Below are positions 1 to 13,601 of a stretch of 64,000 nt of DNA, in pieces (the stretch's first letter is position 1; the number at the start of each line of letters is the position of its first letter). Origin of the DNA: Acutalibacteraceae bacterium (GTDB lineage Bacteria > Bacillota > Clostridia > Oscillospirales > Acutalibacteraceae); the NCBI GenBank assembly GCA_045533205.1, contig JAZSHL010000047.1, positions 39,027 to 103,026 of the forward strand. Direction: 5' to 3'. A program made the translations under genes and the position numbers. The notes under the pieces were generated by a model. That model was not told the DNA's origin. It worked only from the letters and a program-made list of their open reading frames with translations, and did no database searches.

Positions 1-540
1 TAAATCATTTATCTTTTCATGACATTTGTGATTATCTTGATACCGAATACCCTTCAAAACATGAATATCAATATTCCCATAATGCCAACACTGGCGAATA
101 GTTTCATAAGGGATATACTCATCATTAAAAACAACAAGATGACAGTGCAGACAACCTTCATTTCCTTCACGCTCTCCCCTTTCCTTCTGTCGTTCAAGAA
201 CATATAGATACTTGAGCTTGTAACCCTTACGTATCATAGCTTTACGAAAAGCAAGAAAGTTATATGAAAACGTTTCATAATCTAAAACAGTCTTTTCATA
301 GGTCAGAGTAAGAAACTTTGTATATTTGCCGATATTTGCCCATATAATCTGCCTGACGGTACGTTGAGCGCGAAGCAAATTGGCAGAACGTTTATCATTA
401 AGCTGCTCATGCCGTTCTATACTGTACCCCCTGCTATAACCGCACCGTATCGGATTAATATACTTGTAATGCTCTACCCTGTTGCCGGATATAAAAGCCT
501 TACTTTTAATATAGGTGTCTACTACACCTAAACCCCTAAC
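1..540 (-). CDS. Rolling-circle replication initiator (HUH endonuclease superfamily), N-terminal ~180 codons. The 3' end lies outside the window and there is no in-frame start codon.
   Basis: Own translation of the minus strand: ...YINPIRCGYSRGYSIERHEQLNDKRSANLLRAQRTVRQIIWANIGKYTKFLTLTYEKTVLDYETFSYNFLAFRKAMIRKGYKLKYLYVLERQKERGEREGNEGCLHCHLVVFNDEYIPYETIRQCWHYGNIDIHVLKGIRYQDNHKCHEKINDL. Motif I is FLTLTY and motif II is HCHLVVF. The frame is open to position 1, and the ORF track omits it because it is open-ended. Confidence 0.7.
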
Positions 541-624
541 ATAATATCACCCTCTTTAAGTTTTGCAACACAATTAGCATTTTGTGTTGTTTTGTCCAAG
601 TTGTGAGTCTATAGTCAAGTTTAA

Positions 625-660
625 TACGCGCGTACGCGCGTGCGCACGCGTGCGTGCGCG
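625..660. repeat. 36-nt perfect alternating pyrimidine-purine tract (TA CG CG CG TA CG CG CG TG CG CA CG CG TG CG TG CG CG) with nested palindromes. Candidate Z-DNA, hairpin or origin element.
   Basis: Read directly: 18 consecutive YR dinucleotides, 28 of 36 G+C. Perfect palindromes CGCGCGTACGCGCG (627-640) and CGCACGCGTGCG (643-654). Lies in the non-coding gap between the Zot-like gene and Rep. Confidence 0.9.
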
Positions 661-797
661 AGGAAACCTCAAAATAGTGCCATAAAAGCCACATCGAGCA
701 TGGAAAGCTATACTCACGATTAAGCAAATATAGCCGATTTTAACCCTATAACCGCCCCAGAGAAAGAAAGCTGCAATGAAGTATAGGGAAGGCAGAA

Positions 798-828
798 AGG
801 GCAAATAAGGAAGCACAGAGGGCAAATA
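798..828. repeat. Two direct copies of AGGGCAAATA spaced exactly 21 bp apart (iteron-like).
   Basis: AGGGCAAATA at 798-807 and 819-828. Both are preceded by CA-A-A/G (cagaAAGGGCAAATA and cacagAGGGCAAATA). Non-coding region next to the GC tract. Confidence 0.7.
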
Positions 829-867
829 CAGCAAACAGGACACAGACTGCAAAAATTTAAAATATGC

Positions 868-896
868 TTGACTTTTAATGCAATATGATATAAAAT
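868..896 (+). promoter_or_regulatory. Sigma-A-type promoter on the plus strand (TTGACT, 17 nt, TAAAAT) with no plus-strand ORF downstream.
   Basis: TTGACT at 868-873, 17-nt spacer, TAAAAT at 891-896. Confidence 0.4.
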
Positions 897-902
897 AAAA
901 GG

Positions 903-968
903 GAAGTGGAAACACTGACCTGAATAAGTGGTTGTGGCCGTGGAAAGTGGCAACCGCTTATTTTTTTT
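903..968 (+). ncRNA. Candidate ~65-nt small RNA, bounded by the promoter at 868-896 and the hairpin plus T8 run at 928-968.
   Basis: Promoter-like hexamers are followed about 30 nt later by the stem GTGGTTG/CAACCGC (928-934 and 951-957, one G-U pair), then TTATTTTTTTT. The unit converges on the stop codon of the Zot-like gene at 973. Confidence 0.3.
928..968 (+). terminator. Plus-strand intrinsic-terminator-like hairpin with a T8 run.
   Basis: 7-bp stem, 16-nt loop, followed by TTATTTTTTTT. On the minus strand the stem has a C-A mismatch and no T run follows. Confidence 0.4.
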
Positions 969-972
969 ATGC

Positions 973-1848
973 TTATTCTCTATGCCAGAATTCTTCATCT
1001 GTCATTACTTCATTATCGTCAAATTCGTCAAAATCCTCATAATAAGCATCTTCTGCTTCTATATCGTGTTCTTTCCTTATTTTGCCTAAAAAAACCTTAA
1101 TTTGGTCAATAACGTAAGAATTTTCAACGTAACCCTGTTTTTCTTGTAATTCTTCAAAATTTAAAATTTCATCCCACATAGGCATATCAATGATAGGTTT
1201 TTCATAAAATGTGTAGGTAGATATAAATTTGTTGTACCATTTCTTGCGCCAGAACAGGAAGTAACCGGAAGGAACTTCACAAATGTCATAAGATACTTTT
1301 TGCATGCCCTTTTTGAACATTCTTCCTTGTACTTCAGTATTCTTATCAGCAATCTTGGCAACTGTAGTTCGTGAACTTTCAATATGGGTAAAATGCCAGA
1401 AACCGGAAGTGAGATAGTATGTATAATCCGCAGCTCTTCTGATATTGAGGTCAAGGCAGTCATAAGCCTGAGTAGCGAGAAATACATGAGTATCATTTTT
1501 ACGAATGAAATTGAAGAATTCATCATCTGATGCAGTCCATTTAGCGTAACTACGTGCAGGCCATACAGTACGAGCTTCGTCAATAAGAACCACAGAATGA
1601 GAAAGATTAGCAGAATATAGCCAATCCTTATCGACATCAGACTTCTCTACACCGTTAATTGTTTTAGTTACTAACGGTATCTGCTTACAACCCTTGTAAG
1701 GATACTGACAATAGACTTCATAACCTTCATTGAGATAAGCATCAACAATAAAGGCGAACAATGTCGATTTACCAGCTCCCCTATCACCTGTAATTATGCC
1801 GCAGAAGCAATTTAAAACATGATTACGTAAACGTTTACCCATGACCAA
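973..1848 (-). CDS. Zot / pI-like phage assembly P-loop ATPase with no transmembrane segment.
   Basis: Walker A GDRGAGKST, Walker B VVLIDEA, and the Zot-like segment FFNFIRKNDTHVFLATQAYDCLDLNIRR. Acidic C-terminal tail. Start is either TTG at 1848 or ATG at 1842, after AAAGAAGG. Confidence 0.75.
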   Translation of the reverse strand: MVMGKRLRNHVLNCFCGIITGDRGAGKSTLFAFIVDAYLNEGYEVYCQYPYKGCKQIPLVTKTINGVEKSDVDKDWLYSANLSHSVVLIDEARTVWPARSYAKWTASDDEFFNFIRKNDTHVFLATQAYDCLDLNIRRAADYTYYLTSGFWHFTHIESSRTTVAKIADKNTEVQGRMFKKGMQKVSYDICEVPSGYFLFWRKKWYNKFISTYTFYEKPIIDMPMWDEILNFEELQEKQGYVENSYVIDQIKVFLGKIRKEHDIEAEDAYYEDFDEFDDNEVMTDEEFWHRE

Positions 1849-1981
1849 AAACCTTCTTTAACAAAATAATTGAGATAGATAAAGCCAAAAGACAACAAAC
1901 AGAATAAAGATAATAATCTAATGCAATCAATGAAGAAAGAATAGAAACGAATAAATCACATAACTTTGAAAAAATAACCAT
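1835..1981 (-). CDS. Hypothetical 48-aa hydrophobic protein overlapping the Zot-like start (below the ORF-track cutoff).
   Basis: Own translation: MVIFSKLCDLFVSILSSLIALDYYLYSVCCLLALSISIILLKKVFGHG. No clear SD, because the hairpin lies immediately upstream. Confidence 0.3.
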   Translation of the reverse strand: MVIFSKLCDLFVSILSSLIALDYYLYSVCCLLALSISIILLKKVFGHG

Positions 1982-1988
1982 AAAATTA

Positions 1989-2010
1989 AGGGGTAAGGAG
2001 ATTTACCCCT
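1989..2010 (-). terminator. Hairpin after the coat-like gene 2034..2255 (attenuator or terminator).
   Basis: Stem AGGGGTAA/TTACCCCT (8 bp), 6-nt loop. On the minus strand it is followed by TAATTTTAT. Confidence 0.4.
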
Positions 2011-2033
2011 AACCCCCTTCTGTAAAAATTATA

Positions 2034-2255
2034 TTATCTGCGTCTACGTCTGCGACCGCCTGCAGAACTTACGCCACGGATACCGAGCTTCTTAACAATA
2101 CCGATAGAAAGCATTACAAGACCGCCAAGGAGCGCGATGAGAACAGGAACGTAAAGCAGAGGGTTACCAGTGATAGTGGTAACGATTGAACCGAACATCG
2201 TAAAAAGAGTGTCAAGAACAATAGTCATAGAAGAAAAAACAGCTGTAGTGGTCAT
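2034..2255 (-). CDS. Coat-like small transmembrane protein with a hexa-arginine C-terminus.
   Basis: 73 aa. Hydrophobic core PLLYVPVLIALLGGLVMLSIGIV, then KKLGIRGVSSAGGRRRRRR. SD AAGGGGG upstream. Confidence 0.55.
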   Translation of the reverse strand: MTTTAVFSSMTIVLDTLFTMFGSIVTTITGNPLLYVPVLIALLGGLVMLSIGIVKKLGIRGVSSAGGRRRRRR

Positions 2256-2294
2256 AATTAACCCCCTTTCTTAAAATTTTAAATTAACTGCAAA

Positions 2295-2325
2295 GCATTG
2301 GCGCAGCTCACGCTGCGGCCCATGC
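2295..2325. other. GC-rich imperfect hairpin between the two coat-like genes.
   Basis: GCATTGGCGCAGC tcac GCTGCGGCCCATGC (13 bp with one mismatch and one bulge). A T-rich run follows on the plus strand (TTTTCTTATTTT), and only TTTG follows on the minus strand. Confidence 0.5.
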
Positions 2326-2330
2326 TTTTC

Positions 2331-2546
2331 TTATTTTCTGCCCTTAATACCAAACTTACGAATAAGTTTAATAGCAAGACCGACAGAACCTGCGACAATA
2401 GCAAGAATAACGGGCCAGAGAAGCAGGTTATTACTTGCAATGGTGTTAATGAGGTCCGTGAAGATACCCCAGAACCATGTAGCTGCAGAACCGATATCAG
2501 AAGCGAGACCGGAAAGATCAGCAAGAGCAACTGTACTACCTTCCAT
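2331..2546 (-). CDS. Major-coat-like small transmembrane protein.
   Basis: MEGSTVALADLSGLASDIGSAATWFWGIFTDLINTIASNNLLLWPVILAIVAGSVGLAIKLIRKFGIKGRK. It has an acidic or amphipathic N-terminus, one TM helix and a Lys/Arg-rich tail. SD AAGGAG lies 8 nt before the ATG at 2546. The ORF-track start at 2564 has no SD. Confidence 0.55.
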   Translation of the reverse strand: MEGSTVALADLSGLASDIGSAATWFWGIFTDLINTIASNNLLLWPVILAIVAGSVGLAIKLIRKFGIKGRK

Positions 2547-2573
2547 TGGCGATACTCCTTTCATAGAATTTTA

Positions 2574-2777
2574 TTATTCATCATCATATTCAGCATCGAC
2601 GTCAGCGCTAATACTTCGATCAGAAAAAGACGAGGAATTAACAATATTATGAATATCATAAAGATATAAATTTGACATATGTAACTGATCAGAAATATCA
2701 TGAAGAAGATCAGAAATTATTTGCAAATAAAAAAAGAAATCTTGAATTTTTTCTTTAATAAAAGACAAAATTATCAC
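2574..2777 (-). CDS. Hypothetical acidic 67-aa protein.
   Basis: ORF track. The GTG start abuts the stop of the upstream gene, and TTG at 2768 after AAGGTGA is an alternative. No TM segment. C-terminus DVDAEYDDE. Confidence 0.35.
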   Translation of the reverse strand: MIILSFIKEKIQDFFFYLQIISDLLHDISDQLHMSNLYLYDIHNIVNSSSFSDRSISADVDAEYDDE

Positions 2778-2778
2778 C

Positions 2779-3342
2779 TTAATCCAAATCTAATTTATCA
2801 TCCAACTGTTCAGAAGTATTATCATATGTTTCCGTGCTGGTATAAGACGTATTAGACAAATAAAACGAACCATCATCAGCCTGTTTATATTTCTTTGTAA
2901 CACGAGTCTTTTTAGAATTCCCCCAGTGTTTATTTTCAAAACCTTCTTGATAATAAGTAAATCCATTAACACGAATAGACATTCGATTAGGATTATTAGA
3001 AAAGAAAGTTTTTGCAATAGATAGACCTTGCTCATATCTTAAAGCTTCGTTATGTTCTTTTTCTCTCTTAAAGCTTTCACGTAATAAACGCTGTTCTTTT
3101 TTAAACTTTTTAAATCTGAAAATTTTATAAAATCTGATACCCTCAGAAGTAAGATCCTCAGGAGAATCAATTAAAACAGATACAAGAGATATGATAAAAA
3201 ACACTGAAGGCAATGTAACACTTATAAAAACAGCTAAAACAAGCAACGGCTGACTGTTTATATAAATAATCAGTCTACCAATTACTGTAAAAAAGTAATC
3301 ACTTATTGCACTAATATCAGAAAAAAGCGAGTCATAAGTCAT
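2779..3342 (-). CDS. Hypothetical membrane protein: N-terminal TM helices plus a charged C-terminal domain.
   Basis: 187 aa. ATGA overlap with the upstream ORF and SD AAGGGGG. Hydrophobic region at about residues 15-60, then a Lys/Arg/Glu-rich region. Confidence 0.55.
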   Translation of the reverse strand: MTYDSLFSDISAISDYFFTVIGRLIIYINSQPLLVLAVFISVTLPSVFFIISLVSVLIDSPEDLTSEGIRFYKIFRFKKFKKEQRLLRESFKREKEHNEALRYEQGLSIAKTFFSNNPNRMSIRVNGFTYYQEGFENKHWGNSKKTRVTKKYKQADDGSFYLSNTSYTSTETYDNTSEQLDDKLDLD

Positions 3343-3509
3343 AATTTACGCCCCCTTAAGATACTGACAATAATAAGGACAACAGAAACACCGAAAAGAA
3401 TCGAAAGAACAATCCAGACAGGCGAAAAACCAACAAATAAATTAAATAATTCATTAAGAAATTCACCTGCAAGGACTAATAGATTAGTAAAAAACTCAAG
3501 TGCATTCAT
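3339..3509 (-). CDS. Small transmembrane protein with a basic C-terminus (coat-like).
   Basis: MNALEFFTNLLVLAGEFLNELFNLFVGFSPVWIVLSILFGVSVVLIIVSILRGRKL. The ATG at 3509 follows the stop of the upstream gene at 3514. The track start, TTG at 3542, is the alternative. Confidence 0.45.
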   Translation of the reverse strand: MNALEFFTNLLVLAGEFLNELFNLFVGFSPVWIVLSILFGVSVVLIIVSILRGRKL

Positions 3510-3513
3510 ACCG

Positions 3514-3699
3514 TCAACCCCTGAACCAAGAAATAACGGCAAATACTACACCACCGATAAGAGGAATACCGACACAGGCAAGAAGAAACCAATTACCTTC
3601 AATCATGCTCCAAACAGTTTGAAAAATTGCAGAAAATGTAGTCATTAAAGAGCCTAACAATGTGCCCATACCTTCAGCAGTTTCAGCAGCTGTCATCAT
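3514..3699 (-). CDS. Small transmembrane protein (coat-like).
   Basis: 61 aa with SD AAGGGGGGTG. N-terminus MMTAAETAEGMGTLLG, then a hydrophobic helix. Confidence 0.5.
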   Translation of the reverse strand: MMTAAETAEGMGTLLGSLMTTFSAIFQTVWSMIEGNWFLLACVGIPLIGGVVFAVISWFRG

Positions 3700-3713
3700 A
3701 AATTACACCCCCC

Positions 3714-3857
3714 TTAACGAAAGAAATCAATAAATGAACAGACACATGTATAAATAACAAAGAGTCCGGCAAGAGCTAATATATAAACAAATATATATTC
3801 AAGAAAACCGTAGCCAACAAGAGGAACTCCTATAAGCTCACGTAAAATATCAATCAT
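3714..3857 (-). CDS. Hypothetical 47-aa transmembrane protein (below the ORF-track cutoff).
   Basis: Own translation: MIDILRELIGVPLVGYGFLEYIFVYILALAGLFVIYTCVCSFIDFFR. ATGA overlap with the stop of 3854..4417, and SD GAAGGGG. Confidence 0.45.
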   Translation of the reverse strand: MIDILRELIGVPLVGYGFLEYIFVYILALAGLFVIYTCVCSFIDFFR

Positions 3858-4417
3858 AAACGTCTACCCCTTCTGAACAAATTTACACATAAACTGAAGA
3901 ATGAACAAAAAGCAATAAGAGCTAACATAACATTCTGATACTTATCTGTTTCGAGAACAGTTGAATTATAATAATTGTAATTATCGGTTATAAATAACAT
4001 ATTACTGTTTGACAATGACATAACATCAGGATTCAAATACTCATAAGTGTTATACCCGGTATTGGAAGTCTGAACTTCGATCGGAGAAAATCGACTGCAT
4101 CTGCAGCTATATTGATTACCGTTTGAAGTAATGACAATCCCGTAGATAGTTGTATTTGAGAAGTTATAAATATCAACAGGCAAATCAGCAGCAGACAAAC
4201 TAAAACCAAAGATATTGTCTTTAAATTCAAGCGGAAAAATAACCGTACACCGCCCAACAGTGGAATCGAGAGCCTCAAACCATGCACCCCCTGAATAATT
4301 TACATAATCCGGTATATCACATGTAAACACAGTTTCTTCATCAGCTGCATAAACATTGATACATGAAAATATCAGAATTATAAAAACACAAATGAAAGAT
4401 AGTATTTTCTTTTTCAT
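3854..4417 (-). CDS. Secreted, C-terminally anchored protein (minor-coat or adsorption-protein-like).
   Basis: Signal peptide MKKKILSFICVFIILIFSCINVYA/ADEE. C-terminal helix MLALIAFCSFFSLCVNLF followed by RRGRRL. Confidence 0.6.
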   Translation of the reverse strand: MKKKILSFICVFIILIFSCINVYAADEETVFTCDIPDYVNYSGGAWFEALDSTVGRCTVIFPLEFKDNIFGFSLSAADLPVDIYNFSNTTIYGIVITSNGNQYSCRCSRFSPIEVQTSNTGYNTYEYLNPDVMSLSNSNMLFITDNYNYYNSTVLETDKYQNVMLALIAFCSFFSLCVNLFRRGRRL

Positions 4418-4424
4418 AAAATCA

Positions 4425-4562
4425 CTTCTTTCCTTTTAAAAACTTAAGAATAACAACAACGATTAAAGCAATGATGAACCATGCGAGAAAAGGAACACCA
4501 AAAACTTGGATATCAAACAGCATACGAAATGCTGATACAAAAATCTGAATAATTGATTCCAT
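4425..4562 (-). CDS. Hypothetical 45-aa transmembrane protein with a basic tail (below the ORF-track cutoff).
   Basis: Own translation: MESIIQIFVSAFRMLFDIQVFGVPFLAWFIIALIVVVILKFLKGKK. TAATG overlap with the upstream stop, and SD GGAAGGGAAGG. Confidence 0.45.
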
Positions 4563-4786
4563 TAATCTTGGCCTTCCCTTCCGAGTACTTTATATATAAC
4601 TGCAACTGCAACGAGAGCAACAGAACTGATTGAAAATGAAACAGGAAGCAAGAAAACAAGATCAAGCAAAAAACTAACACATTCGATAGCCATATCCACC
4701 AAAATAAGACACCATTCAGAAAGAGAATCGATAATATCAAAAATAGAAGTAAAAAAATCAGATATATACCAAAAAATAACAACCAT
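4562..4786 (-). CDS. Small two-helix membrane protein.
   Basis: 74 aa. TAATG overlap with the stop of 4786..5937, and SD AAAGGTGG. Confidence 0.5.
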   Translation of the reverse strand: MVVIFWYISDFFTSIFDIIDSLSEWCLILVDMAIECVSFLLDLVFLLPVSFSISSVALVAVAVIYKVLGREGQD

Positions 4787-5937
4787 TAGCGACCGACCAC
4801 CTTTCTAACAACAGCAAAAACAAGAAGAAAGATAAAACAGGCATTTAAAATAGGTACGGCATCAAAAAATGTATTAATTATAGATGTGCCTTGCTCAATA
4901 TAAACCGATACAGAATCAAGTGTATCCTCAAGCGTTAAAACGAAATCACCGGTACGTGAGGCATTCTCATTAATAAATAAATCAATATCAGTCAAAACAC
5001 CGCCGCTAAAATATTCTTCTCTTTCAGGCTTAGTTTCCTGAAAATACAACATGTAATTTATAAGCTTATCAAAGAAAGCACCAATCTGAGCAGGAATGTC
5101 TTTTATACTCTGCCAGATGCCTTTCTGTGTTTCCTGTTCCTGTTGATCTACTGTAGGCGGGACGAAAGTTTCACAGTAAATAGTTGTTGAAGCCGCATCA
5201 TTATAAAAGAATCGACCACTCTGAAAACCGACTTGATTATCTACAGTAAAATAACAATTTTCATTTGAAGATTGAAGAGGAAAGTTAACAGACGTTACAT
5301 TACCGACTCTGACACCGTTACCACCATAAAAGTAAAAATCATAAGTTGATGTCGGATAAGCAAATGTAGAAGTATAGGCCATAACCTTAGAAACACCTTC
5401 AGCACCATAAGAAGTCGGCTGAAGCTTTACCCAATCACTTGTAGCTTCATAAGTTTCAGCGTTAAAATAACAACGATAACAGGCAGAATTACTGTAAAAA
5501 TATTCAGATACACAAACTCTCATACGGTCATTTTTAAGATCATAACCAAGACCGCAATTAAAGCCGGCAATAACTACAACATCAGTTGCGCTTCTGACTC
5601 TGACAAGGACAAAAGGCATTTTATATGTCGCAGGATCAGTTGACTGCGCACCATCAAGTGACATATAAATAATTTCCTGTATGTATGAAGGAGCTTCAGA
5701 CCATGGCAGCTTCTTTGGATCAAAATTAGGATAATTCTTCTCAGGTGATAAAAGCGTTACAGGGCCCGACATAAGAGGATCAGAATAGCCGGAAGGTAAA
5801 GCATATGAAACACCGTCATATACATAACCGTATTCAAATAAATCATCAACAGAAAAAGCTGAAACTGAACCAAAAAAAGACAACGAGAGCATAACAGAAC
5901 AAACAATAAAAATAATTATTTTCTTTGCTGTTTTCAT
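4786..5937 (-). CDS. pIII-like candidate adsorption or minor coat protein: signal peptide plus C-terminal membrane anchor.
   Basis: 383 aa. Signal peptide MKTAKKIIIFIVCSVMLSLSFFGSVSA/FS. C-terminal helix ILNACFIFLLVFAVV followed by RKVVGR. It is the largest ORF of the module. Confidence 0.6.
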   Translation of the reverse strand: MKTAKKIIIFIVCSVMLSLSFFGSVSAFSVDDLFEYGYVYDGVSYALPSGYSDPLMSGPVTLLSPEKNYPNFDPKKLPWSEAPSYIQEIIYMSLDGAQSTDPATYKMPFVLVRVRSATDVVVIAGFNCGLGYDLKNDRMRVCVSEYFYSNSACYRCYFNAETYEATSDWVKLQPTSYGAEGVSKVMAYTSTFAYPTSTYDFYFYGGNGVRVGNVTSVNFPLQSSNENCYFTVDNQVGFQSGRFFYNDAASTTIYCETFVPPTVDQQEQETQKGIWQSIKDIPAQIGAFFDKLINYMLYFQETKPEREEYFSGGVLTDIDLFINENASRTGDFVLTLEDTLDSVSVYIEQGTSIINTFFDAVPILNACFIFLLVFAVVRKVVGR

Positions 5938-5981
5938 GTTATGCCCCCATTGTCAAAAAAGGATGATAGGATAAAGAGAAA

Positions 5982-6263
5982 TTATGTTTTTACAGGTTTA
6001 AATCCAACAATACGAGGTTTTTCATCTTTCTTAACACCAGTAAAATGAAATATCCACTCGTAATAAGCGTTACACTGAATAGTGTTAGGAATTTTAGCAT
6101 TGCCATCACGGAAAAACTTTGATCCTGCTAACTTACCTGTTGTAGGATAAGGATCTGTAGGATCAGGATCAGTAAGAAAATAAATCATCTTACCATGGAC
6201 AGTCTTGCTTTCATTGTCTCTATCAGGAAAAGACATACTTGTTACACCTACGATTTCAAACAT
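5982..6263 (-). CDS. Hypothetical soluble 93-aa protein. Size and position fit a ssDNA-binding protein, but no motif was recognised.
   Basis: ORF track, SD GAAAGAAGG, no TM segment. Confidence 0.5.
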   Translation of the reverse strand: MFEIVGVTSMSFPDRDNESKTVHGKMIYFLTDPDPTDPYPTTGKLAGSKFFRDGNAKIPNTIQCNAYYEWIFHFTGVKKDEKPRIVGFKPVKT

Positions 6264-6287
6264 AAAAAAAACCTTCTTTCTAAAAAC

Positions 6288-6299
6288 TTTGTAGGATTT
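6288..6299. repeat. Exact 12-nt copy (TTTGTAGGATTT) of the right half of operator IR2.
   Basis: 6288-6299 is identical to 6615-6626. It lies between ORFs 6309..6548 and 5982..6263. Confidence 0.6.
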
Positions 6300-6308
6300 T
6301 TATTTATA

Positions 6309-6548
6309 TCAACCGTCGTCACGGTTAATAATCGAATCAACATAATCTGTAAGCTCTTTAGCTGATTTATCAACACGCTTCTTCAATACATAACGCTTTA
6401 TTGTTCGTGATATATCATCAACGACATTAATTAAGGAAGCAATAATAACACCACCAACGAAACCCGCAAAAACAAAAAAAGCCGCAACAAATGCAGGTAT
6501 TGAATTAAAATAAGCATTAACTGCATCTAAATCAGGTACATAATCCAT
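6309..6548 (-). CDS. Hypothetical single-TM 79-aa protein, the first gene of the minus-strand phage operon.
   Basis: ORF track, SD GAGGTGA. Hydrophobic helix IPAFVAAFFVFAGFVGGVIIASLI. Confidence 0.5.
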   Translation of the reverse strand: MDYVPDLDAVNAYFNSIPAFVAAFFVFAGFVGGVIIASLINVVDDISRTIKRYVLKKRVDKSAKELTDYVDSIINRDDG

Positions 6549-6577
6549 TTTTTTTTCACCTCAAATATTTTTTCAGA

Positions 6578-6652
6578 ACACTACAAAATGTAGTGTCTAT
6601 ATATTATCCTACTTTTTGTAGGATTTCAACCCCTTAAACTACATTTTGTAGT
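6578..6652. promoter_or_regulatory. Operator array of three palindromes sharing a CTAC...GTAG core.
   Basis: IR1 ACACTACA-AAA-TGTAGTGT (6578-6596). IR2 TCCTAC-TTTTT-GTAGGA (6607-6623). IR3 ACTACA-TTT-TGTAGT (6638-6652). All lie in the divergent gap between the XRE repressor and the phage operon. Confidence 0.6.
6601..6629 (-). promoter_or_regulatory. Promoter of the minus-strand phage operon: TTGAAA, 17 nt, TAATAT.
   Basis: Minus-strand TTGAAA at 6629-6624 and TAATAT at 6606-6601. The 17-nt spacer is exactly IR2. Confidence 0.5.
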
Positions 6653-6680
6653 ATTGTACAAATATAAGGGGGTGCAAACT

Positions 6681-6905
6681 ATGGATTATAGACAAAAATT
6701 TAAAAACTTAAGAATTGATAATGATTTAAAACAAGAAGACATAGCAAAAATTTGCAATGTATCAGATGCAACAGTTGGACACTGGGAAACGAAAAGAAGA
6801 GACATGAAAATTGATAGCATTATAAAACTATGTATTTTTTATAATGTGTCACCAGAATACATTTTTGGATTTACAAAAGAACAAAAACCATTACCTAAAA
6901 AATAA
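6681..6905 (+). CDS. XRE-family helix-turn-helix repressor (cI/Cro-like).
   Basis: MDYRQKFKNLRIDNDLKQEDIAKICNVSDATVGHWETKRRDMKIDSIIKLCIFYNVSPEYIFG. SD AAGGGGGTG lies 6 nt upstream of the ATG at 6681. The track start, TTG at 6654, is less likely. Confidence 0.8.
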   Translation: MDYRQKFKNLRIDNDLKQEDIAKICNVSDATVGHWETKRRDMKIDSIIKLCIFYNVSPEYIFGFTKEQKPLPKK

Positions 6906-6968
6906 TTTTGTTACTTTTTGTGATTCTGAAGATACAACTGTAAGAACATAAAAGAGGAGATAAGAAAA

Positions 6969-7277
6969 ATGAAAAATCAACCAAAAAACAAATATGATGA
7001 AATGATTGACGAGCTAATACAATGGGAAAAGAAAGAAATCAGAAAAATTAAATTAACAGGCCTAATCTTTATAACAATCGGACTTGTATTTCTTATCTTG
7101 TTATTCACACATGACGAAGGTAACAAATTAATATATTTATTGGCAACACTCGGATTTATAGGAATTGGAACAAAGTTCGAAGAGGGAAAAAGAAAAGAAA
7201 TACGAAAATATGTAAACAGACAAATCAGAACAATTGAAGATGAACAAATGAGAGACTACTTAAGAAAACAAAAATAA
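6969..7277 (+). CDS. Hypothetical two-TM membrane protein downstream of the repressor.
   Basis: 102 aa, SD AGAGGAGA. Helices LTGLIFITIGLVFLILLF and LIYLLATLGFIGIG. Confidence 0.55.
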   Translation: MKNQPKNKYDEMIDELIQWEKKEIRKIKLTGLIFITIGLVFLILLFTHDEGNKLIYLLATLGFIGIGTKFEEGKRKEIRKYVNRQIRTIEDEQMRDYLRKQK

Positions 7278-7299
7278 GAGAGCCGTCACAGGCTCTCTT
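7276..7299. terminator. Bidirectional hairpin between the convergent genes 6969..7277 and 7286..7510.
   Basis: Stem AAGAGAGCC/GGCTCTCTT (9 bp), 6-nt loop, T-rich runs on both strands. Confidence 0.45.
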
Positions 7300-7510
7300 T
7301 GTTGTTATAACTTTTGTTAATGCAATAACCTAAATCACATAACACACACCTTAATAATGCAGTAACAACATATTTAGGCGGTGTACGTGATCCCGAAGAC
7401 CAAGAACACAAAGTACGGTAAGGAACATCATAATGAACGGAAAATTCAAACAAAGAATAACGAGATAAAATTATAACATCACGAATTGTAGTTTCAGTTT
7501 TATTATTCAT
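7286..7510 (-). CDS. Small helix-turn-helix protein (XRE-like).
   Basis: MNNKTETTIRDVIILSRYSLFEFSVHYDVPYRTLCSWSSGSRTPPKYVVTALL... SD AGGAGGG precedes the ATG at 7510. The track start, GTG at 7540, lies inside the repeats. Confidence 0.55.
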   Translation of the reverse strand: MNNKTETTIRDVIILSRYSLFEFSVHYDVPYRTLCSWSSGSRTPPKYVVTALLRCVLCDLGYCINKSYNNKESL

Positions 7511-7529
7511 AAACCCTCCTGCGCTTGAA

Positions 7530-7561
7530 ACAATGTGCACCTAAAGGAACACATTGTGCAC
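7530..7561. repeat. Two 11-nt direct repeats, ACAATGTGCAC and ACATTGTGCAC, spaced 21 bp apart. Each contains the palindrome GTGCAC.
   Basis: 7530-7540 and 7551-7561, identical at 10 of 11 positions, immediately upstream of the small HTH gene. Confidence 0.6.
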
Positions 7562-7619
7562 TACGTTAAATTTCGTAAACAATAAATAAAAAAATTTAAA
7601 ATGTAAAATAAAGCAGTTA

Positions 7620-7647
7620 TTTTGTATAGTTGTTTATTATGTAAATT
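7620..7647 (+). other. Weak dif-like site in which only the XerD-arm half matches.
   Basis: TTATGTAAATT (7637-7647) matches the B. subtilis dif XerD arm TTATGTAAACT at 10 of 11 positions. The left arm does not match (2 of 11). Confidence 0.15.
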
Positions 7648-7793: not shown

Positions 7794-9716
7794 ATGCAGA
7801 TAAAAGTTCAGAACGGAGTTGTTGATCTTTCCGGTGAACCTGTGTTGAAAAAAGTTAATATAGAGATAAACACTGAAAGTAAAATTGGTATTGTAGGAAG
7901 AAACGGCTGCGGCAAAACAACATTGTTAAGACTTCTTTCCGGTGAGCTCAAAATTTCTAAGGATACACCTACGGAGCTTAACAGTCAATTTATTGTTTCG
8001 GGTAAGCCGACAATCGGTGCATTGAATCAGATGGCTTTTAAAGATAACAGCGTTTTGCTGATTGATGAAATTAGAAGTGCATATTCAGATTTACTTTCTA
8101 TGCAGAAAAGGCTGTCTGATTTGCAGCAGCAAATGGAAAGCTCTTCTGCTCAGGAAGATATTATTTCTGAGTACTCTACCCTCTTGGATCGATTCACAAA
8201 TTGTGGCGGATTCTATTTCGAAAAGGAATACGAGGCGGCGATTAAGCGGTTTGGCTTCACTAATGAAGAAAAATATAAGCCCTTGTCTGACTTTTCCGGT
8301 GGACAAAGAACAAAAATCGCATTTCTGAAGCTTCTTTTGTCAAAGCCTGACTTGCTTTTGCTTGATGAGCCGACCAATCATCTTGACCTTGACGCTGTCA
8401 CCTGGCTTGAGGAATATTTATCTACGTATAAAAAAGCAGTTGTAATAGTATCTCATGACCGAATGTTTCTTGATAAAACAGTAACTACAATATACGAGAT
8501 TGAGCACGGTAAAACATATAAATATGACGGTAATTATTCAAGCTTTGCTAAGCAGAAGGAGCTTGTCCGTGAACAGCAAGCAAAGGATTATGAGGCCCAG
8601 CAGAAGGAAATTGCCAAGCTTAACGAACTGATTGAGCGATTCAGATACAAAGCTACCAAGGCTGCTATGGTACAGTCTAAAATAAAGTATCTTGAAAGAA
8701 TGGAGTTAATTGAGCCGCCTGACAAATTTGATTTAAAGCAGTTTCATGCTGATTTCGAGCCTGATATGAGGTCTGTAAACGATGTTTTAACCGTCAGGGA
8801 TCTTGAGATAGGATATACTCACGTTATCTCAAAATTATCATTTAATGTGCGCAGAGGTCAGCATGTCGGTATTATTGGCGGCAACGGAAAAGGCAAATCG
8901 ACACTTCTCAAAACAATTGTCGGCGCTATCCCGAAAATTTCAGGCTCGTATATTATCGGCGGTAATGTCAGAGTCGGATATTTTGATCAGCAAATGGCAC
9001 AGTATTCAAGCAATCTGACACTTCTTGATGATTTCATGAATGAATTTCCATCTATTACCACTTTCGAAGCCAGAAGTGCGCTCGGAGCCTTTTTGTTCAG
9101 TGGTGACGATGTTTTTAAAACTGTTGATATGCTTTCCGGCGGTGAAAAGGTCAGACTTGCCTTGTGTAAGCTGTTTAAGCACAAGCCGAACTTCCTGATT
9201 CTTGACGAGCCGACGAATCATATGGATATTGTCGGCAAGGAAACTCTTGAAAATATTCTTACAAATTACAGCGGCACCTTGCTTTTTGTTTCACATGACA
9301 GATATTTTGTCAATAAGGTCGCACATCATGTTTTATCCTTTGAGAATAATGATGTCAATTGGTATGAATACGGTTATGCTGATTATGTTGAAAAACAAAG
9401 CAAGCTCTCCTCCCCTTCTCCGGCTGATTCAACAGAGTCAATCAATGTTGCCGCTGAAAAGACGCCCAAGAAAAGCTATACTACCCCTTTGAAAGAAAAA
9501 TCAAGAAGGGAAAGAGCTCTTAAAAAGAGTGAAGAGCTTATTGAGTCACTTGAAGCGGAGCTGACACAGCTGCAAGATGAAATTCAAAAGGAAGAAAACA
9601 TAAGCGACTATATTAAACTTGAACAGCTGCAAAAAGCTATTGCAGACACAAGCACAAGGCTTGAGCTGGCAATGGAGGAATGGGAAATTTTAGCAGTTGA
9701 AAATGAATCTGAATAA
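7794..9716 (+). CDS. ABC-F family ATPase: two ABC domains, no TM segment, C-terminal coiled coil.
   Basis: Walker A GRNGCGKTT and GGNGKGKST. Signatures LSGGQRTK and LSGGEKVR. Both followed by LLLDEPTNHLD / LILDEPTNHMD. Confidence 0.85.
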   Translation: MQIKVQNGVVDLSGEPVLKKVNIEINTESKIGIVGRNGCGKTTLLRLLSGELKISKDTPTELNSQFIVSGKPTIGALNQMAFKDNSVLLIDEIRSAYSDLLSMQKRLSDLQQQMESSSAQEDIISEYSTLLDRFTNCGGFYFEKEYEAAIKRFGFTNEEKYKPLSDFSGGQRTKIAFLKLLLSKPDLLLLDEPTNHLDLDAVTWLEEYLSTYKKAVVIVSHDRMFLDKTVTTIYEIEHGKTYKYDGNYSSFAKQKELVREQQAKDYEAQQKEIAKLNELIERFRYKATKAAMVQSKIKYLERMELIEPPDKFDLKQFHADFEPDMRSVNDVLTVRDLEIGYTHVISKLSFNVRRGQHVGIIGGNGKGKSTLLKTIVGAIPKISGSYIIGGNVRVGYFDQQMAQYSSNLTLLDDFMNEFPSITTFEARSALGAFLFSGDDVFKTVDMLSGGEKVRLALCKLFKHKPNFLILDEPTNHMDIVGKETLENILTNYSGTLLFVSHDRYFVNKVAHHVLSFENNDVNWYEYGYADYVEKQSKLSSPSPADSTESINVAAEKTPKKSYTTPLKEKSRRERALKKSEELIESLEAELTQLQDEIQKEENISDYIKLEQLQKAIADTSTRLELAMEEWEILAVENESE

Positions 9717-9721
9717 AAAAT

Positions 9722-9753
9722 CCGGTAAACACTGCTTGTTTACCGGATTTTTT
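9722..9753 (+). terminator. Intrinsic terminator of the ABC-F gene.
   Basis: Perfect 10-bp stem CCGGTAAACA/TGTTTACCGG, 5-nt loop, then ATTTTTT. Confidence 0.8.
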
Positions 9754-9769
9754 ATGATTCTCTAAAGCA

Positions 9770-9814
9770 TAAAATAACACTGCTGATTTGCACATTAATC
9801 ATGTAAATCAGCAG
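9770..9814 (-). terminator. Intrinsic terminator of the minus-strand gene 9830..10333.
   Basis: Stem CTGCTGATTT/AAATCAGCAG with inner ACAT/ATGT pairing. A T-rich run follows on the minus strand. Confidence 0.55.
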
Positions 9815-9829
9815 CAAAATTGTTTGATA

Positions 9830-10333
9830 TTATATTCCGATGGCGCCTAAAAGTCCATATGACAAAATGGATATAATTATTCCGGCGATGAACACTCCGA
9901 CGGAGATTGTCGGTAACGAATGCTTGATTCTGATGTCAAGCAAATCTGCGATCAGAGCGCCTGTCCATGCACCTGTACCGGGCAATGGGATTGCAACAAA
10001 AAACAGCAAACCCCAAAGCCTGTATTTCTTAACTCCATCTGCTTTTCTTATTGAACGTGCTTCAAGCCTTTCAATAACCTTATTGATTTTTCTGATTTTT
10101 TTTAACCAATTGAATATTTTTCTTATGAAAAGAAGAATAAACGGTATAGGCAACATATTGCCAATAAAACAAATCACAAAGGCTCTGAAAAACTCAATGT
10201 CAAGCAGCTTTGCAGCAATAAGACCGCCTCTGAGTTCGAGAACAGGAAGCATTGATACAATAAAAACAATCAACTCTGATGCAATCTTCCCTTCAAGGTT
10301 GCCGACAATATATTCAGTAATAGCTTCACTCAT
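9830..10333 (-). CDS. Small membrane protein of the putative small multidrug export family.
   Basis: LPVLELRGGLIAA motif and 4-5 TM helices. The ATG at 10333 follows GGAGG. The track start at 10363 overlaps the upstream gene. Confidence 0.5.
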   Translation of the reverse strand: MSEAITEYIVGNLEGKIASELIVFIVSMLPVLELRGGLIAAKLLDIEFFRAFVICFIGNMLPIPFILLFIRKIFNWLKKIRKINKVIERLEARSIRKADGVKKYRLWGLLFFVAIPLPGTGAWTGALIADLLDIRIKHSLPTISVGVFIAGIIISILSYGLLGAIGI

Positions 10334-10334
10334 G

Positions 10335-11075
10335 TTATGCCTCCGTACTGATAAGCTTGTCAACCGTAAGCTTAGCTTCGTTGAGAATCAGTTTATCGTT
10401 TTCATAATTAAGTGTTTTCAGCGCATCCTGGAAATTAAACCATCCACATTCTTCAATTTCTTCGACCTGAAGGTTGTATTCTGTATTCTTTGTTTTAGCA
10501 AGAAAAATCGACACAGATTTTTCAATTTTGCCCTGGATAGTGTACTCTGACTTTTTCACAAAACCGGGTATAATTTCGATGTTTATGCCGGTTTCCTCAA
10601 GAACCTCTCTGATTGCAGTTTCTTCATCAGTTTCACCAGGCTCAACATGTCCCTTCGGAAAGCCCCAATGTGCACTTCGTTTGTTCCTGATGAGAAGATA
10701 CATCGGAGTGTTGTTTTCCTCTCTGAACACAACTGCGCCACATGACCTTTCAAAGAAGCACTCAATATTATATGAGTTTTTGCCTTCGGCGAATTCAACA
10801 GCCTGCTTAATGTCATTTACAATGAATCGTGTGCTTTTCGGTGCAACAACCCAGACAATACCCTTACAACCGTGCCTTTTAATAATGGCAATAACACGTC
10901 CGTCAAAGTTTCTGACAGGATGATTAATGCCCATAATATATGCACACTGAACGGATTTCTTCCGATTTTTCGGAGATTCAATGACACCGTAGTTCAGCAT
11001 ATATTTAAAGCCGAATCTGTTGTTGTATGAGTACATAGGGGAGGTTACACGTACCTTTACAAATTTACCTAACAT
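10335..11075 (-). CDS. Nudix hydrolase with an N-terminal pyrophosphatase-like domain.
   Basis: Nudix box GHVEPGETDEETAIREVLEETG. N-terminal LNYGVIES...DGRVIAIIKRHG...VWVVAP resembles the inorganic-pyrophosphatase fold. Confidence 0.7.
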   Translation of the reverse strand: MLGKFVKVRVTSPMYSYNNRFGFKYMLNYGVIESPKNRKKSVQCAYIMGINHPVRNFDGRVIAIIKRHGCKGIVWVVAPKSTRFIVNDIKQAVEFAEGKNSYNIECFFERSCGAVVFREENNTPMYLLIRNKRSAHWGFPKGHVEPGETDEETAIREVLEETGINIEIIPGFVKKSEYTIQGKIEKSVSIFLAKTKNTEYNLQVEEIEECGWFNFQDALKTLNYENDKLILNEAKLTVDKLISTEA

Positions 11076-11263
11076 TGGTATCCCCTTTTACAAAATGTAA
11101 CTGTCTAACAGAGAAAAGGTTAACCCTTTTAAATACAGCTACACAGAATAATATGGATACATTATACTTCACCTTGACTAATATTTCAATAGATATTGTC
11201 AAAAAAATATTATAAGAAAATAATTCAAAAATATAATTTATTTGTAAACTATGTATTTTTTTG

Positions 11264-11292
11264 TTGTTATTTAATTAAAGATGTGATATAAT
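11264..11292 (+). promoter_or_regulatory. Promoter for the plus-strand HAD/HD/membrane/TetR gene group: TTGTTA, 17 nt, TGaTATAAT.
   Basis: TTGTTA at 11264-11269 and the extended -10 TGATATAAT ending at 11292. Confidence 0.45.
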
Positions 11293-11330
11293 TCAAAATG
11301 ATTAATTTTAGAATGGATTGATATGCACAA

Positions 11331-12170
11331 ATGAGAACTCTGTATCTTTCTGATCTTGACGGAACACTTCTTAATTCACAGGCAGTTCTTTCATCTGAAT
11401 CGTGCAGAATGTTAAATGACCTTATTGACAAAGGTATGCTGTTCAGCGTTGCCACTGCAAGAACTGCAGCAACTGTTCTTGATATTTTTAAGGACGTAAA
11501 ACTTAATCTGCCCCTTATTCTTATGAATGGTGTCGTTCTGTATGACTTCAAGGAAGAAAGGAATTTATTGTGCCATTCTATTGACAATGAAACTGCAGCA
11601 GAAATTCTTGAGCTGTTTGAAAAACAAGGCAAATCCCCTATGCTCTATTTTCAGGAGGAAGGTTTTCTGAGAATTGAGCACAGCGATCTTACAAATGCTC
11701 ATCAGATGAATTATGTAAATCAAAGGCACGACCTTAAAAGAAAAAAGTTTTTATATCGTCAGTCACTTGAGTTAACAGGAAGCGGCAATTTGATTTACAT
11801 TGTAACACTTGACTATCCGGAACAGATCAAAGGCATTTATGATAGCATTGTCATGGCTGATAAGGTCACATGCACATTTTACGAAGACAATTATACAGAC
11901 TGTTACTTCCTTGAATGTATGAATAAAAAAGCAACCAAAGCTTCTGCGGCTGTGGAGCTTAAAAAAATTCTCAGTGTTGACAGAATTGTTGCTTTCGGTG
12001 ATAATCTCAACGATATCCCCTTGTTTGAACTTGCAGATGAGGCCTACGCTGTTGCGAATGCTTGTCAGGAGCTTAAGGATATTGCTGACGGTGTCATCGG
12101 CTCAAATGATGACGACGCAGTTGCGAGGTTTCTTACCGAAATATACGAAGCAAATAATATAAAAGGATAA
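11331..12170 (+). CDS. HAD-superfamily Cof-type phosphatase.
   Basis: N-terminal LYLSDLDGTLL and C-terminal FGDNLNDIPLF. Confidence 0.75.
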   Translation: MRTLYLSDLDGTLLNSQAVLSSESCRMLNDLIDKGMLFSVATARTAATVLDIFKDVKLNLPLILMNGVVLYDFKEERNLLCHSIDNETAAEILELFEKQGKSPMLYFQEEGFLRIEHSDLTNAHQMNYVNQRHDLKRKKFLYRQSLELTGSGNLIYIVTLDYPEQIKGIYDSIVMADKVTCTFYEDNYTDCYFLECMNKKATKASAAVELKKILSVDRIVAFGDNLNDIPLFELADEAYAVANACQELKDIADGVIGSNDDDAVARFLTEIYEANNIKG

Positions 12171-12175
12171 CTACT

Positions 12176-12715: not shown

Positions 12716-12716
12716 T

Positions 12717-13586: not shown

Positions 13587-13601
13587 ATAAAGGAGAAAAA
13601 T

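Follow-up and report, generated by a model that had tools for sequence, protein, structure and literature searches.

A filamentous (inovirus-type) prophage of a Clostridia-type endospore former and its candidate integration hot-spot beside a Xer-family recombinase gene

Introduction

The presence of inovirus prophages throughout the bacteria was predicted in 2019 (PMC6813254), and gut strains of Enterocloster carry inovirus prophages of 6.5–8.5 kb with direct repeats, whose secretion as virions was shown in 2023, related ones being predicted in Hungatella (PMC10061712). Among Gram-negative hosts, the filamentous phages CTXphi, VGJphi, and TLCphi are integrative mobile elements exploiting Xer (IMEX), which lack an integrase, hijack the host XerCD recombinases at dif-like sites, and stack there in arrays (PMC4246890, PMC5357621). 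Streptococci and lactococci possess the XerS/difSL system, whose site consists of two imperfect inverted repeats located immediately upstream of the gene of a Xer-type recombinase (PMC1914069). Here, these systems are compared with an element found in a stretch of 64,000 nucleotides of an Acutalibacteraceae bacterium (assembly GCA_045533205.1, contig JAZSHL010000047.1, positions 39,027 to 103,026), hereafter referred to as the window. Positions 1–7632 of the window very likely represent about 93% of a temperate filamentous (inovirus-type, Tubulavirales) prophage of about 8.2 kb in an endospore-forming host of the Clostridia type. Judging from a close relative (L024), about 0.54 kb of phage DNA lies beyond the left edge of the window and comprises the C-terminus of the Rep protein, an open reading frame (ORF) of about 70 aa, and the second copy of the attachment (att) core.

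In Gram-negative bacteria, filamentous phages affect the formation of biofilms as well as virulence and fitness; in the gut-dominant spore-forming Clostridia, they have barely been studied. The locus described here is a well-delimited example that offers, by way of its relatives, a full set of att sites, a candidate replication origin, a repressor–operator switch, and an assembly ATPase devoid of transmembrane (TM) segments, all of them directly testable.

Identification of the prophage and its host

The reading of this region as a filamentous prophage, proposed earlier from the sequence without database searches (the sequence-only reading), was upheld by a Zot-family ATPase, a phage-type Rep, a collinear genome classified in Inoviridae, an empty integration site in a relative, and a left flank without conflicting genes. 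Its identity as an inovirus-type prophage is held with high confidence. The P-loop ATPase is recognized as Zot by Pfam (22.9 bits, with a gathering score of 20.3) and by the PHROG family phrog_197 ("Zot-like"), with no matches to conjugation families. Moreover, it shares 51% identity (E 6e-79) with the annotated Zot protein of PQ006155.1, and the GenBank phage records in which it finds matches are inoviruses in 34 cases out of 34. A search of 5.8 billion proteins retrieved 169 clusters of related ATPases, many of them encoded on contigs of 6–9 kb, and some bear the NCBI name zonular occludens toxin domain protein and come from metagenome-assembled genomes (MAGs) of Ruminococcus or Eubacterium.

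The second protein that carries this assignment is the HUH Rep, whose phage type was confirmed by Pfam (PF23343 REP_ORF2-G2P, 8.7e-12) and by the PHROG rolling-circle initiator families phrog_3419 and phrog_3584, the motifs FLTLTY and HCHLVVF being read in frame in the window. This Rep is 84% identical to the 271-aa Rep of L002, the nearest phage relative found in a genome, which belongs to an Acutalibacteraceae MAG. Motif III, with the catalytic Tyr, falls just outside the window and is visible only in relatives, for instance as YVSKYITK in L002.

The Reps of rolling-circle plasmids and single-stranded DNA (ssDNA) phages are related, a distantly related element (L026) has a plasmid-like RepB-type Rep in place of the G2P type, and the phage is known here from its genes. 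These points would favour, over a phage, a rolling-circle plasmid that has integrated, or else a mobilisable island of small size in which a P-loop ATPase and membrane proteins happen to be encoded. Such an origin is, nevertheless, very improbable in view of the Zot-family ATPase shared with an Inoviridae-classified genome, the collinear arrangement of its coat-like proteins, its signal-peptide/anchor proteins, and its small membrane proteins, and the secretion of related Clostridia elements as virions (PMC10061712). It is also opposed by the gene content, since searches of the window ORFs against Pfam and PHROG revealed no relaxase, type IV secretion system, Mob protein, or resistance cargo.

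The same searches found no capsid, terminase, portal, tail, secretin, or integrase/recombinase family, in agreement with the reported absence of such genes from the phage part of the window. The minus-strand block, described earlier as about 15 tightly packed ORFs, contains 16 ORFs between 6548 and 973, and the distance from one ORF to the next varies from −29 to +75 nt. The G-rich Shine–Dalgarno (SD) sequences are indeed present at most of them, and several overlap by 1 or 4 nt. Nine of the ORFs encode small hydrophobic proteins of 46–79 aa (p79, p74, p46, p47, p61, p67b, p77, p73, and p48), each with one to three hydrophobic segments as scored by Kyte–Doolittle; however, the statement that most of them have a basic C-terminus was exaggerated, as this is clearly the case in only four or five of the nine. 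Two larger proteins, p383 and p187b, combine a signal-peptide-like N-terminus with a C-terminal hydrophobic anchor followed by basic residues, as had been proposed. Together with L024, the window points to a small genome of about 8.2 kb composed of tightly packed, co-oriented ORFs and free of icosahedral-phage families, and the same architecture is found in L002, L003–L022, L024, L025, and L029.

The genes flanking the prophage are ordinary Firmicute core genes (ABC-F ATPase, PASTA kinase, PriA, RsmB, Dxs, RecN, XseA, and TyrS). A spore-forming host, as initially assumed, is indicated by a spoIIIA-type operon, with AB, AE, and AG matches that are all under the equivalog cut-offs, and by a SpoIIM-like gene in the relative L023; judged from gene content, an endospore former of the Clostridia is a well-supported host. 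Further into the host DNA, the plus-strand genes (7794–14198) converge at 14195–14198 on about 45 consecutive minus-strand genes (14195–63710), and the GC skew shifts there from +0.04 to −0.085, so that this point may mark the replication terminus region.

Boundaries of the prophage and probable site-specific integration

The boundary model was built from relatives, as the window shows only one end of the phage. This end had been placed at 7561, which proved to be wrong: the true end is the att core CAACTATACAAAATAA at 7617–7632. Site-specific integration at CAACTATACAAAATAA is strongly supported. Firstly, an empty site was found in L023, whose ABC-F gene is 85% identical to that of the window and which lacks the phage; it has the arrangement A-CAACTATACAAAATAA-B upstream of ABC-F (attB), and about 540 nt beyond attB it contains the gene of a 335-aa tyrosine recombinase convergent with the SpoIIM-like gene. 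Secondly, L024, which is 94% identical to window positions 3660..1, continues past the left edge of the window with 507 nt that encode the C-terminus of Rep and a 71-aa ORF, followed by the att core. This stretch holds no capsid or conjugation genes, whose appearance on the left flank would have contradicted a filamentous phage. Beyond the core CAACTATACAAAATAA, L024 proceeds into p84/p102-like genes and then into the start of p383, that is, into a phage–phage junction (attP); L024 therefore stems from phage DNA in a circular or tandem state, and the genome size it implies is about 8.2 kb. Thirdly, L029, with a Zot 83% identical to that of the window, contains a complete integrated copy of 8.95 kb beside the same ABC-F gene, flanked by an exact direct repeat of 16 bp, GTACTATACAAAATAA.

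When the attB of L023 and the attP of L024 are aligned with the window and with L002, the core is invariant, and on one side of it the phage arm CTGCTTTATTTT is common to the window and attP and the host arm AT[A/G]TTTT...AAGGGGA is common to L023 and L002. Together, the findings on these relatives are the signature of conservative site-specific recombination, for close relatives supply examples of attB, of attP, and of both hybrid junctions. No tRNA or Rfam RNA family was found at the att site. Two circumstances count against this boundary model: for the genome of the window itself, neither the left end of the phage nor a second att copy or a recombinase gene is visible, and the 10-mer core motif is not enriched in the window alone (10 matches with at most one mismatch, for 10.7 expected).

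L002 was also considered as a circular genome, but it has no terminal overlap and represents a prophage fragment running into host DNA. The three independent assemblies L002, L029, and L030 break within a few hundred bases past the junction on the Rep side, and the first position of the window falls within Rep; these breaks fit a difficulty of assembly arising from the coexistence of integrated and circular forms, or from the AT-rich spacer.

A candidate hot-spot beside a Xer-family recombinase gene

The core CAACTATACAAAATAA is the left arm of an imperfect palindrome composed of an arm, 4 nt, and a second arm, exemplified in L023 by AACTATACAAAAT-AAAT-ATTTTCTTTAGTT. The stretch common to attP and attB comprises the core and about 30 nt upstream of it, and the other arm is degenerate in the phage, with 5 of 12 matches to an ideal inverted repeat versus 9–12 of 12 in host sites. 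A similar site occurs in the distant gut prophages L003–L022, which have the same architecture, a Zot about 60% identical, and a GC content of 41.7% in a host of 52–53%. These prophages are flanked by a repeat of about 25 bp, GCTATAAT-TATACAAAAT-TATTATT, and the right junction of the L006 type forms a perfect 12-4-12 palindrome, ATTATACAAAAT-TATT-ATTTTGTATAAT, which ends 17 nt before the gene of a 329-aa recombinase (Phage_integrase, 6e-37; XerC/XerD models, about 1e-60). This gene is convergent with spoIIM and falls in the identity class of the host, its flanks being 96–98% identical between loci versus about 92–93% for the phage.

Elements of at least four lineages of small size are located at this core, sometimes in arrays (L007, L009, L026, and L030). 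An element of about 2.5 kb (L007:11620-14112 and L009:2170-4670) encodes a Rep_1-like protein (294 aa, HPHLHCLIAV) and a 201-aa tyrosine recombinase reduced to the catalytic domain; it is inserted at this palindrome on the right-hand side of the L007 prophage and, in opposite orientation, on the left-hand side of the L009 prophage, with duplication of the arm. In L026 (1-9650; the same in L027), three or more small elements are arrayed upstream of the ABC-F orthologue. One of them, distantly related and 6.9 kb long, encodes a Zot and a RepB-type Rep (PF01719) and is flanked by a direct repeat of at least 100 bp in which a 71-aa ORF is duplicated; another is a small-integrase element, and yet another possesses a G2P-type Rep. 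Finally, an element of 6.6 kb with this core at its borders (L030:6471-13043) encodes a p383-like protein, an XRE regulator, and a G2P-type Rep and has no recognisable Zot, in place of which stands a divergent 273-aa P-loop ATPase (GFGKT, YFIDE). The L030 sequence ends just past Rep, and the predicted recombinase side lies beyond it.

No recombinase was found among the ORFs of the window (Pfam and PHROG) or the called genes of L024 and L029. It is proposed, with evenly balanced confidence, that the integration could be catalyzed by the neighbouring Xer-family enzyme of the host in an IMEX-like manner, because the phage appears to have no integrase of its own, its core is a half-palindrome beside a Xer-family gene, and the site is reused by several lineages. 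In broader and more tentative terms, quite possible but short of likely, the Xer-family recombinase gene convergent with spoIIM and its palindromic site in cis (arm consensus AyTATACAAAAT) may form a landing pad dedicated to several lineages of filamentous phages without an integrase and of small elements of the rolling-circle type, which stack at it in arrays.

Several observations weigh against the involvement of the neighbouring enzyme. The recombinases score under the NCBIfam equivalog cut-offs of XerC, XerD, and XerS (147–161 bits versus 267 in the case of XerS), the full attB of L023 is separated by about 540 bp from the recombinase gene instead of adjoining it, and the hot-spot elements of L007 and L026 encode their own small tyrosine recombinases, which makes it possible that a co-resident element provides a helper enzyme. 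The same facts, including the length of 185–201 aa of these catalytic-domain-only enzymes, would support an integration driven by canonical XerC/XerD encoded elsewhere, by a small tyrosine recombinase acting in trans, or by the HUH Rep. This second explanation is conceivable but rather doubtful: a phage of the window type is integrated in L029, where no small-integrase element was seen; a palindrome of arm, spacer, and arm with identity segments of 16–100 bp fits tyrosine recombinases and not HUH nicking; and two unrelated chromosomal contexts have in common only the motif and the Xer-family/spoIIM pair.

That the att site is the dif site of the chromosome is unlikely. The gene strands and the GC skew of the window switch about 6.5 kb from the att site, and the skew of the L006-type loci changes sign across the site, albeit with short flanks; as evidence of a terminus, GC skew is weak and suggestive at most. 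In addition, the att site resembles canonical dif only loosely, and no canonical dif of the B. subtilis type was found in the 64 kb window.

Three side observations concern the surroundings of the recombinase gene. In L023, about 540 nt of AT-rich non-coding DNA (2030-2560) separate attB from the gene, and a second half-site, ATTTTGTATAGTT, is located 25 nt upstream of the start codon, overlapping a promoter-like sequence, TTGACA-17-TATAGT; this spacer may be the remnant of an older insertion. In the L006-type locus (L006:11555-11628 compared with L006:4695-4745), the phage end brings a consensus −35 element, TTGACT, 17 nt before the shared TATAAT of the att repeat, replacing the TTGCAT of the host. 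An integrating phage may in this way replace the upstream promoter of the recombinase gene, and in the gut relatives the new −35 element may raise its expression.

Replication region and state of this copy

The non-coding gap of about 430 nt noted earlier measures 431 nt between the stop codon of the ATPase gene and a small ORF ahead of Rep. It contains a 79-nt block that is unchanged in five phages whose coding DNA diverges by 6–30%, except for a hairpin loop that reads CACG or CGTG. The hairpins of this block are predicted at z = −2.3, and the palindrome I14 maps there. The block is the best candidate for the replication origin, or Rep nick region, and for the Rep promoter, judging from its conservation and structure; its ACTTG(A/G) motifs may resemble rolling-circle nick sites. 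It has no exact match in IMG/VR. A genome-wide promoter scan performed at chance level (35 found and 32 expected), and promoters are not claimed from it because it did not exceed chance. In the first GC hairpin (loop at window 645-648), the loop is CACG in the window, L024, and L025 and the reverse complement CGTG in L002 and L029, with identical stems; the difference looks like an inversion through template switching within the hairpin and suggests that the hairpin forms in vivo.

The ORF of four codons ahead of Rep is kept as M-x-x-V-stop in L024, L025, L002, and L029, and this putative upstream ORF probably limits the translation of Rep. A frameshifted or decayed Rep was ruled out, as the mini-ORF and the arrangement of frames are conserved in all the relatives, and the actual change affects the start codon, which is ATT in the window (510-508) and ATG in L024, L025, L002, and L029. 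This is the sole lesion found, and it could mean either reduced replication or a sequencing error.

The suggestion that the prophage is possibly decaying gains slight support from this single change and is opposed by the integrity of every ORF and by ratios of non-synonymous to synonymous substitution (dN/dS) that are below 1 with respect to L002 for every gene, and as low as 0.12–0.20 for Zot, p73, p77, and p61. Whether this copy is still replication-competent is judged an even question, given that it may replicate poorly from the ATT start of Rep. The stronger view, in which the filamentous prophage would be a defective or domesticated cryptic island producing neither replication nor virions, could draw on the ATG of the four relatives and on the lack of exact copies of most of its proteins on any other contig. 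It is considered unlikely. All 19 of 19 ORFs are intact and under the constraint just described, the conserved mini-ORF could deliver ribosomes to the ATT codon, and ATT can act as a weak initiator codon. Furthermore, a phage 94% identical is seen as a circular or tandem junction contig (L024), and a single-base sequencing error is possible at this position.

Gene content and morphogenesis proteins

The features of the prophage in the window are collected in Table 1.

Table 1. Features of the prophage in the window. In VYA/AD and VSA/FS, a slash is used for the vertical bar.
Feature	Position	Strand	Remarks
HUH Rep, N-terminal ~170 codons	1..510	-	gene truncated by the left window edge; PF23343, phrog_3419, phrog_3584
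Four-codon upstream ORF MLGV* with strong SD GAGGGTGA	528..542	-	ends 17 nt ahead of the Rep start codon
Invariant 79-nt non-coding block	585..663	-	two GC-rich hairpins (627-660); two ACTTG(A/G) motifs (CTTG 616-619, 597-600)
pI/Zot-family morphogenesis ATPase, 291 aa, acidic C-terminal tail	973..1848	-	Walker A GDRGAGKST, Walker B VVLIDEA
p48, two-TM protein	1835..1981	-	gene overlaps the ATPase start by 14 nt
Terminator-like hairpin	1989..2010	-	directly 3' of p73
p73, coat-like, TM helix, C-terminal RRRRRR	2034..2255	-	dN/dS 0.12; homologues in L001, L002, L006
p77, coat-like paralogue, TM helix, C-terminal KLIRKFGIKGRK	2331..2564	-	dN/dS 0.17
p67a, acidic, no TM	2574..2777	-	variable part of the module
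p187a, two TM segments	2779..3342	-	only the N-terminal 73 residues conserved in L002; variable part of the module
p67b, p61, p47, small membrane proteins	3339..3857	-	candidate minor coat or assembly proteins
p187b, signal peptide (VYA/AD) and C-terminal anchor	3854..4417	-	candidate virion-tip protein
p46 and p74, small membrane proteins	4422..4786	-	conserved in all relatives
p383, signal peptide (VSA/FS), C-terminal TM anchor	4786..5937	-	candidate pIII-like adsorption protein
p93, all-beta 93-aa cytoplasmic protein, basic C-terminus	5982..6263	-	candidate ssDNA-binding (gene V-like) protein
p79, single-TM protein	6309..6548	-	opens the late (minus-strand) operon
Three palindromic operator-like sites, CTACAnnnnTGTAG type	6575-6594, 6605-6624, 6635-6654		XRE/p79 divergent control region; repeat families D4, I1
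XRE/Cro-CI-type repressor, 83 aa	6654..6905	+	Pfam HTH_3 7.8e-10; PHROG repressor families
p102, two-TM protein co-oriented with the repressor	6969..7277	+	76% DNA identity to a 100-aa gene of L024
Bidirectional terminator, p102/p84	7276..7299		closes the XRE-p102 unit
p84, first gene after the att site	7286..7540	-	phrog_25567 (unknown function), 5e-5
att core CAACTATACAAAATAA, host-phage junction	7617..7632	-	phage arm CTGCTTTATTTT at lower coordinates, host DNA at higher

The proteins p77 and p73 are the likely candidates for the major coat protein, because of their TM helices and basic tails, the strongest constraint among the small genes (dN/dS 0.12–0.17), the terminator that follows them, and a weak likeness to pVIII. 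They are tandem paralogues kept in four lineages, and p77 shows a weak local similarity to M13 pVIII (10 of 26 residues identical, E 4e-4). In Ff phages, a terminator follows gene VIII, in the same place as the hairpin after p73. The products p61 (dN/dS 0.16) and p67b are further members of this family of coat-like paralogues.

As candidates for the virion tip or adsorption, p383 and p187b are likely on the basis of their predicted topology. The first has a beta-rich core at residues ~65–205 (AlphaFold2 pLDDT, a confidence score, of 59 overall and 73–94 in the core), its C-terminal third is homologous to a 380-aa protein of PQ006155.1, and 13 homologues were found, while its fold gave no significant match in the PDB or BFVD. 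The second is homologous to L001 5722-6252 and 60% identical to a protein of L002.

By its size, all-beta structure, and charge, p93 is a likely candidate for the ssDNA-binding protein. It has only 3 relatives among 1.8 billion representatives, and its AlphaFold2 model consists of six strands with a low-confidence pLDDT of 56. A structural assignment as a gene V-like ssDNA-binding protein was dropped, given the low confidence of the model and the lack of any meaningful match in the fold search. Residues 50–87 of p93 match twelve tandem repeats of a 1,392-aa cell-surface-type protein (P0122) with a vWA-like N-terminus and a C-terminal anchor, which probably reflects compositional or beta-repeat similarity and not homology.

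The ATPase lacks the TM segment of canonical pI, no hydrophobic segment being found in any 19-residue window of its 291 aa; its relatives measure 235–351 aa. This departure from pI weighs against the reading given here, as does the finding that the coat, ssDNA-binding, and adsorption candidates have no family match in Pfam or PHROG and that structure searches with p93 and p383 came back empty, so that these predicted functions rest on size, position, and composition. The absence of a TM segment may be an adaptation to monoderm hosts in which the anchor is supplied by separate small TM proteins, and p48 is a possible membrane partner of the ATPase.

Regulatory and immunity region

The divergent XRE repressor noted earlier at the other end of the block was confirmed, and it is 35% identical to the annotated repressor of PQ006155.1. 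The co-oriented p102 could possibly be a superinfection-exclusion or lysogeny gene, and p84 may, speculatively, encode a regulator or an accessory factor of recombination. A relationship of p84 to XafT/DUF3653-like Xer activation factors or excisionases was discarded, as it has no Pfam match even at E <= 10. A direct repeat, GTGCACAATGT / GTGCACATTGT, is located at window 7545-7580, just upstream of p84, and may be its operator. In L024, a phage otherwise 94% identical, the immunity region is wholly different (L024:4873-5837 versus window 5982-6955), and the versions of XRE, p79, and p93 are replaced, which points to heteroimmune variants generated by module exchange.

Proposed life cycle

In the lysogenic state, the XRE repressor bound to three palindromic operators would silence the divergent minus-strand operon. 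After derepression, Rep would nick the 79-nt block and initiate rolling-circle synthesis of ssDNA, with its own translation probably restrained by the four-codon mini-ORF. The ssDNA would then be coated, probably by p93, whose place would be taken during assembly by the membrane-inserted coat paralogues p77 and p73, together with p61 and p67b. Extrusion of the filament through a single membrane, in which no secretin would be needed, would be driven by the Zot-family ATPase, which has no TM segment of its own and probably docks to p48 or similar small proteins in the membrane, and p383 and p187b would form the adsorption tip. Finally, integration and excision would occur by an exchange of the tyrosine-recombinase type at the core CAACTATACAAAATAA, for which the phage would borrow a Xer-family enzyme of the host as IMEX elements borrow XerCD.

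Comparison with known systems

The Ff phages (M13/fd/f1), whose textbook features serve as a reference, resemble the window phage in their rolling-circle Rep and an ATPase of the pI family; the candidate proteins of the window phage would add a small helical coat protein with a basic C-terminus, a terminator after its gene, and an adsorption protein with signal peptide and anchor. In contrast, the window phage has no secretin, its ATPase lacks the TM segment and the periplasmic domain, and it has two tandem coat-like paralogues. Moreover, it is temperate, with an XRE switch, and Rep is the last gene in the order, next to att.

A closer counterpart is Bajarodino virus 43 (PQ006155.1), a circular genome of 8,022 bp from woodrat faeces, filed under Inoviridae and close in size to the window phage. 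It contains homologues of eight window genes (p383, p74, p187b, p61, p77, p73, Zot, and XRE), and the seven morphogenesis genes among them are collinear. However, its Rep is not homologous to that of the window, which points to an exchange of the replication module, and its repressor is located between Zot and Rep and not upstream of the structural operon. This virus is known as a metagenomic circle only, without host or integration site.

The gut prophages of Enterocloster and Hungatella share with the window phage a host among the spore-forming Clostridia and a pI homologue, accompanied in their case by 10–16 further ORFs (PMC10061712). The likeness is taken here from their description; that study is silent on an integrase, Xer, or a recombinase-linked site, and the att core motif is absent from its supplements. 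The earlier remark that few such phages of Gram-positive bacteria have been studied experimentally is fair, although the secretion of the Enterocloster inoviruses has been shown since 2023 (PMC10061712).

Like the IMEX phages, the window phage has no integrase, uses a short palindromic site, possesses an attP with one conserved and one degenerate arm, and has relatives that form arrays at the site. Unlike them, it resides in a monoderm, Clostridia-type host, and its site differs from a canonical 28-bp dif and is next to a recombinase gene. The identity between attP and attB of the window type also extends for about 45 bp on one side, unlike that of IMEX phages, and a dependence on Xer is suggested here by gene linkage. 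Two reviews on Xer and IMEX name only Gram-negative IMEX hosts. If the hot-spot beside the Xer-family gene operates as proposed, Xer hijacking would be extended to monoderm bacteria, as the first IMEX-type system described in monoderm spore-formers, and the lysogeny of Clostridia by integrase-less inoviruses would be explained. In that case, the core beside the Xer/spoIIM pair would also provide a simple signature to find such elements and arrays in metagenomes.

The layout of the XerS/difSL system, in which the site stands right before the recombinase gene, is shared exactly by the L006-type loci. Yet, the recombinase is not an XerS equivalog here and scores best with XerC/XerD models, and the spacer between the arms has 4 nt versus 6–8. 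Inoviruses of gut Clostridia are already known, and what comparison among related genomes suggests as the potentially new part of this locus is the hot-spot beside the Xer-family/spoIIM pair.

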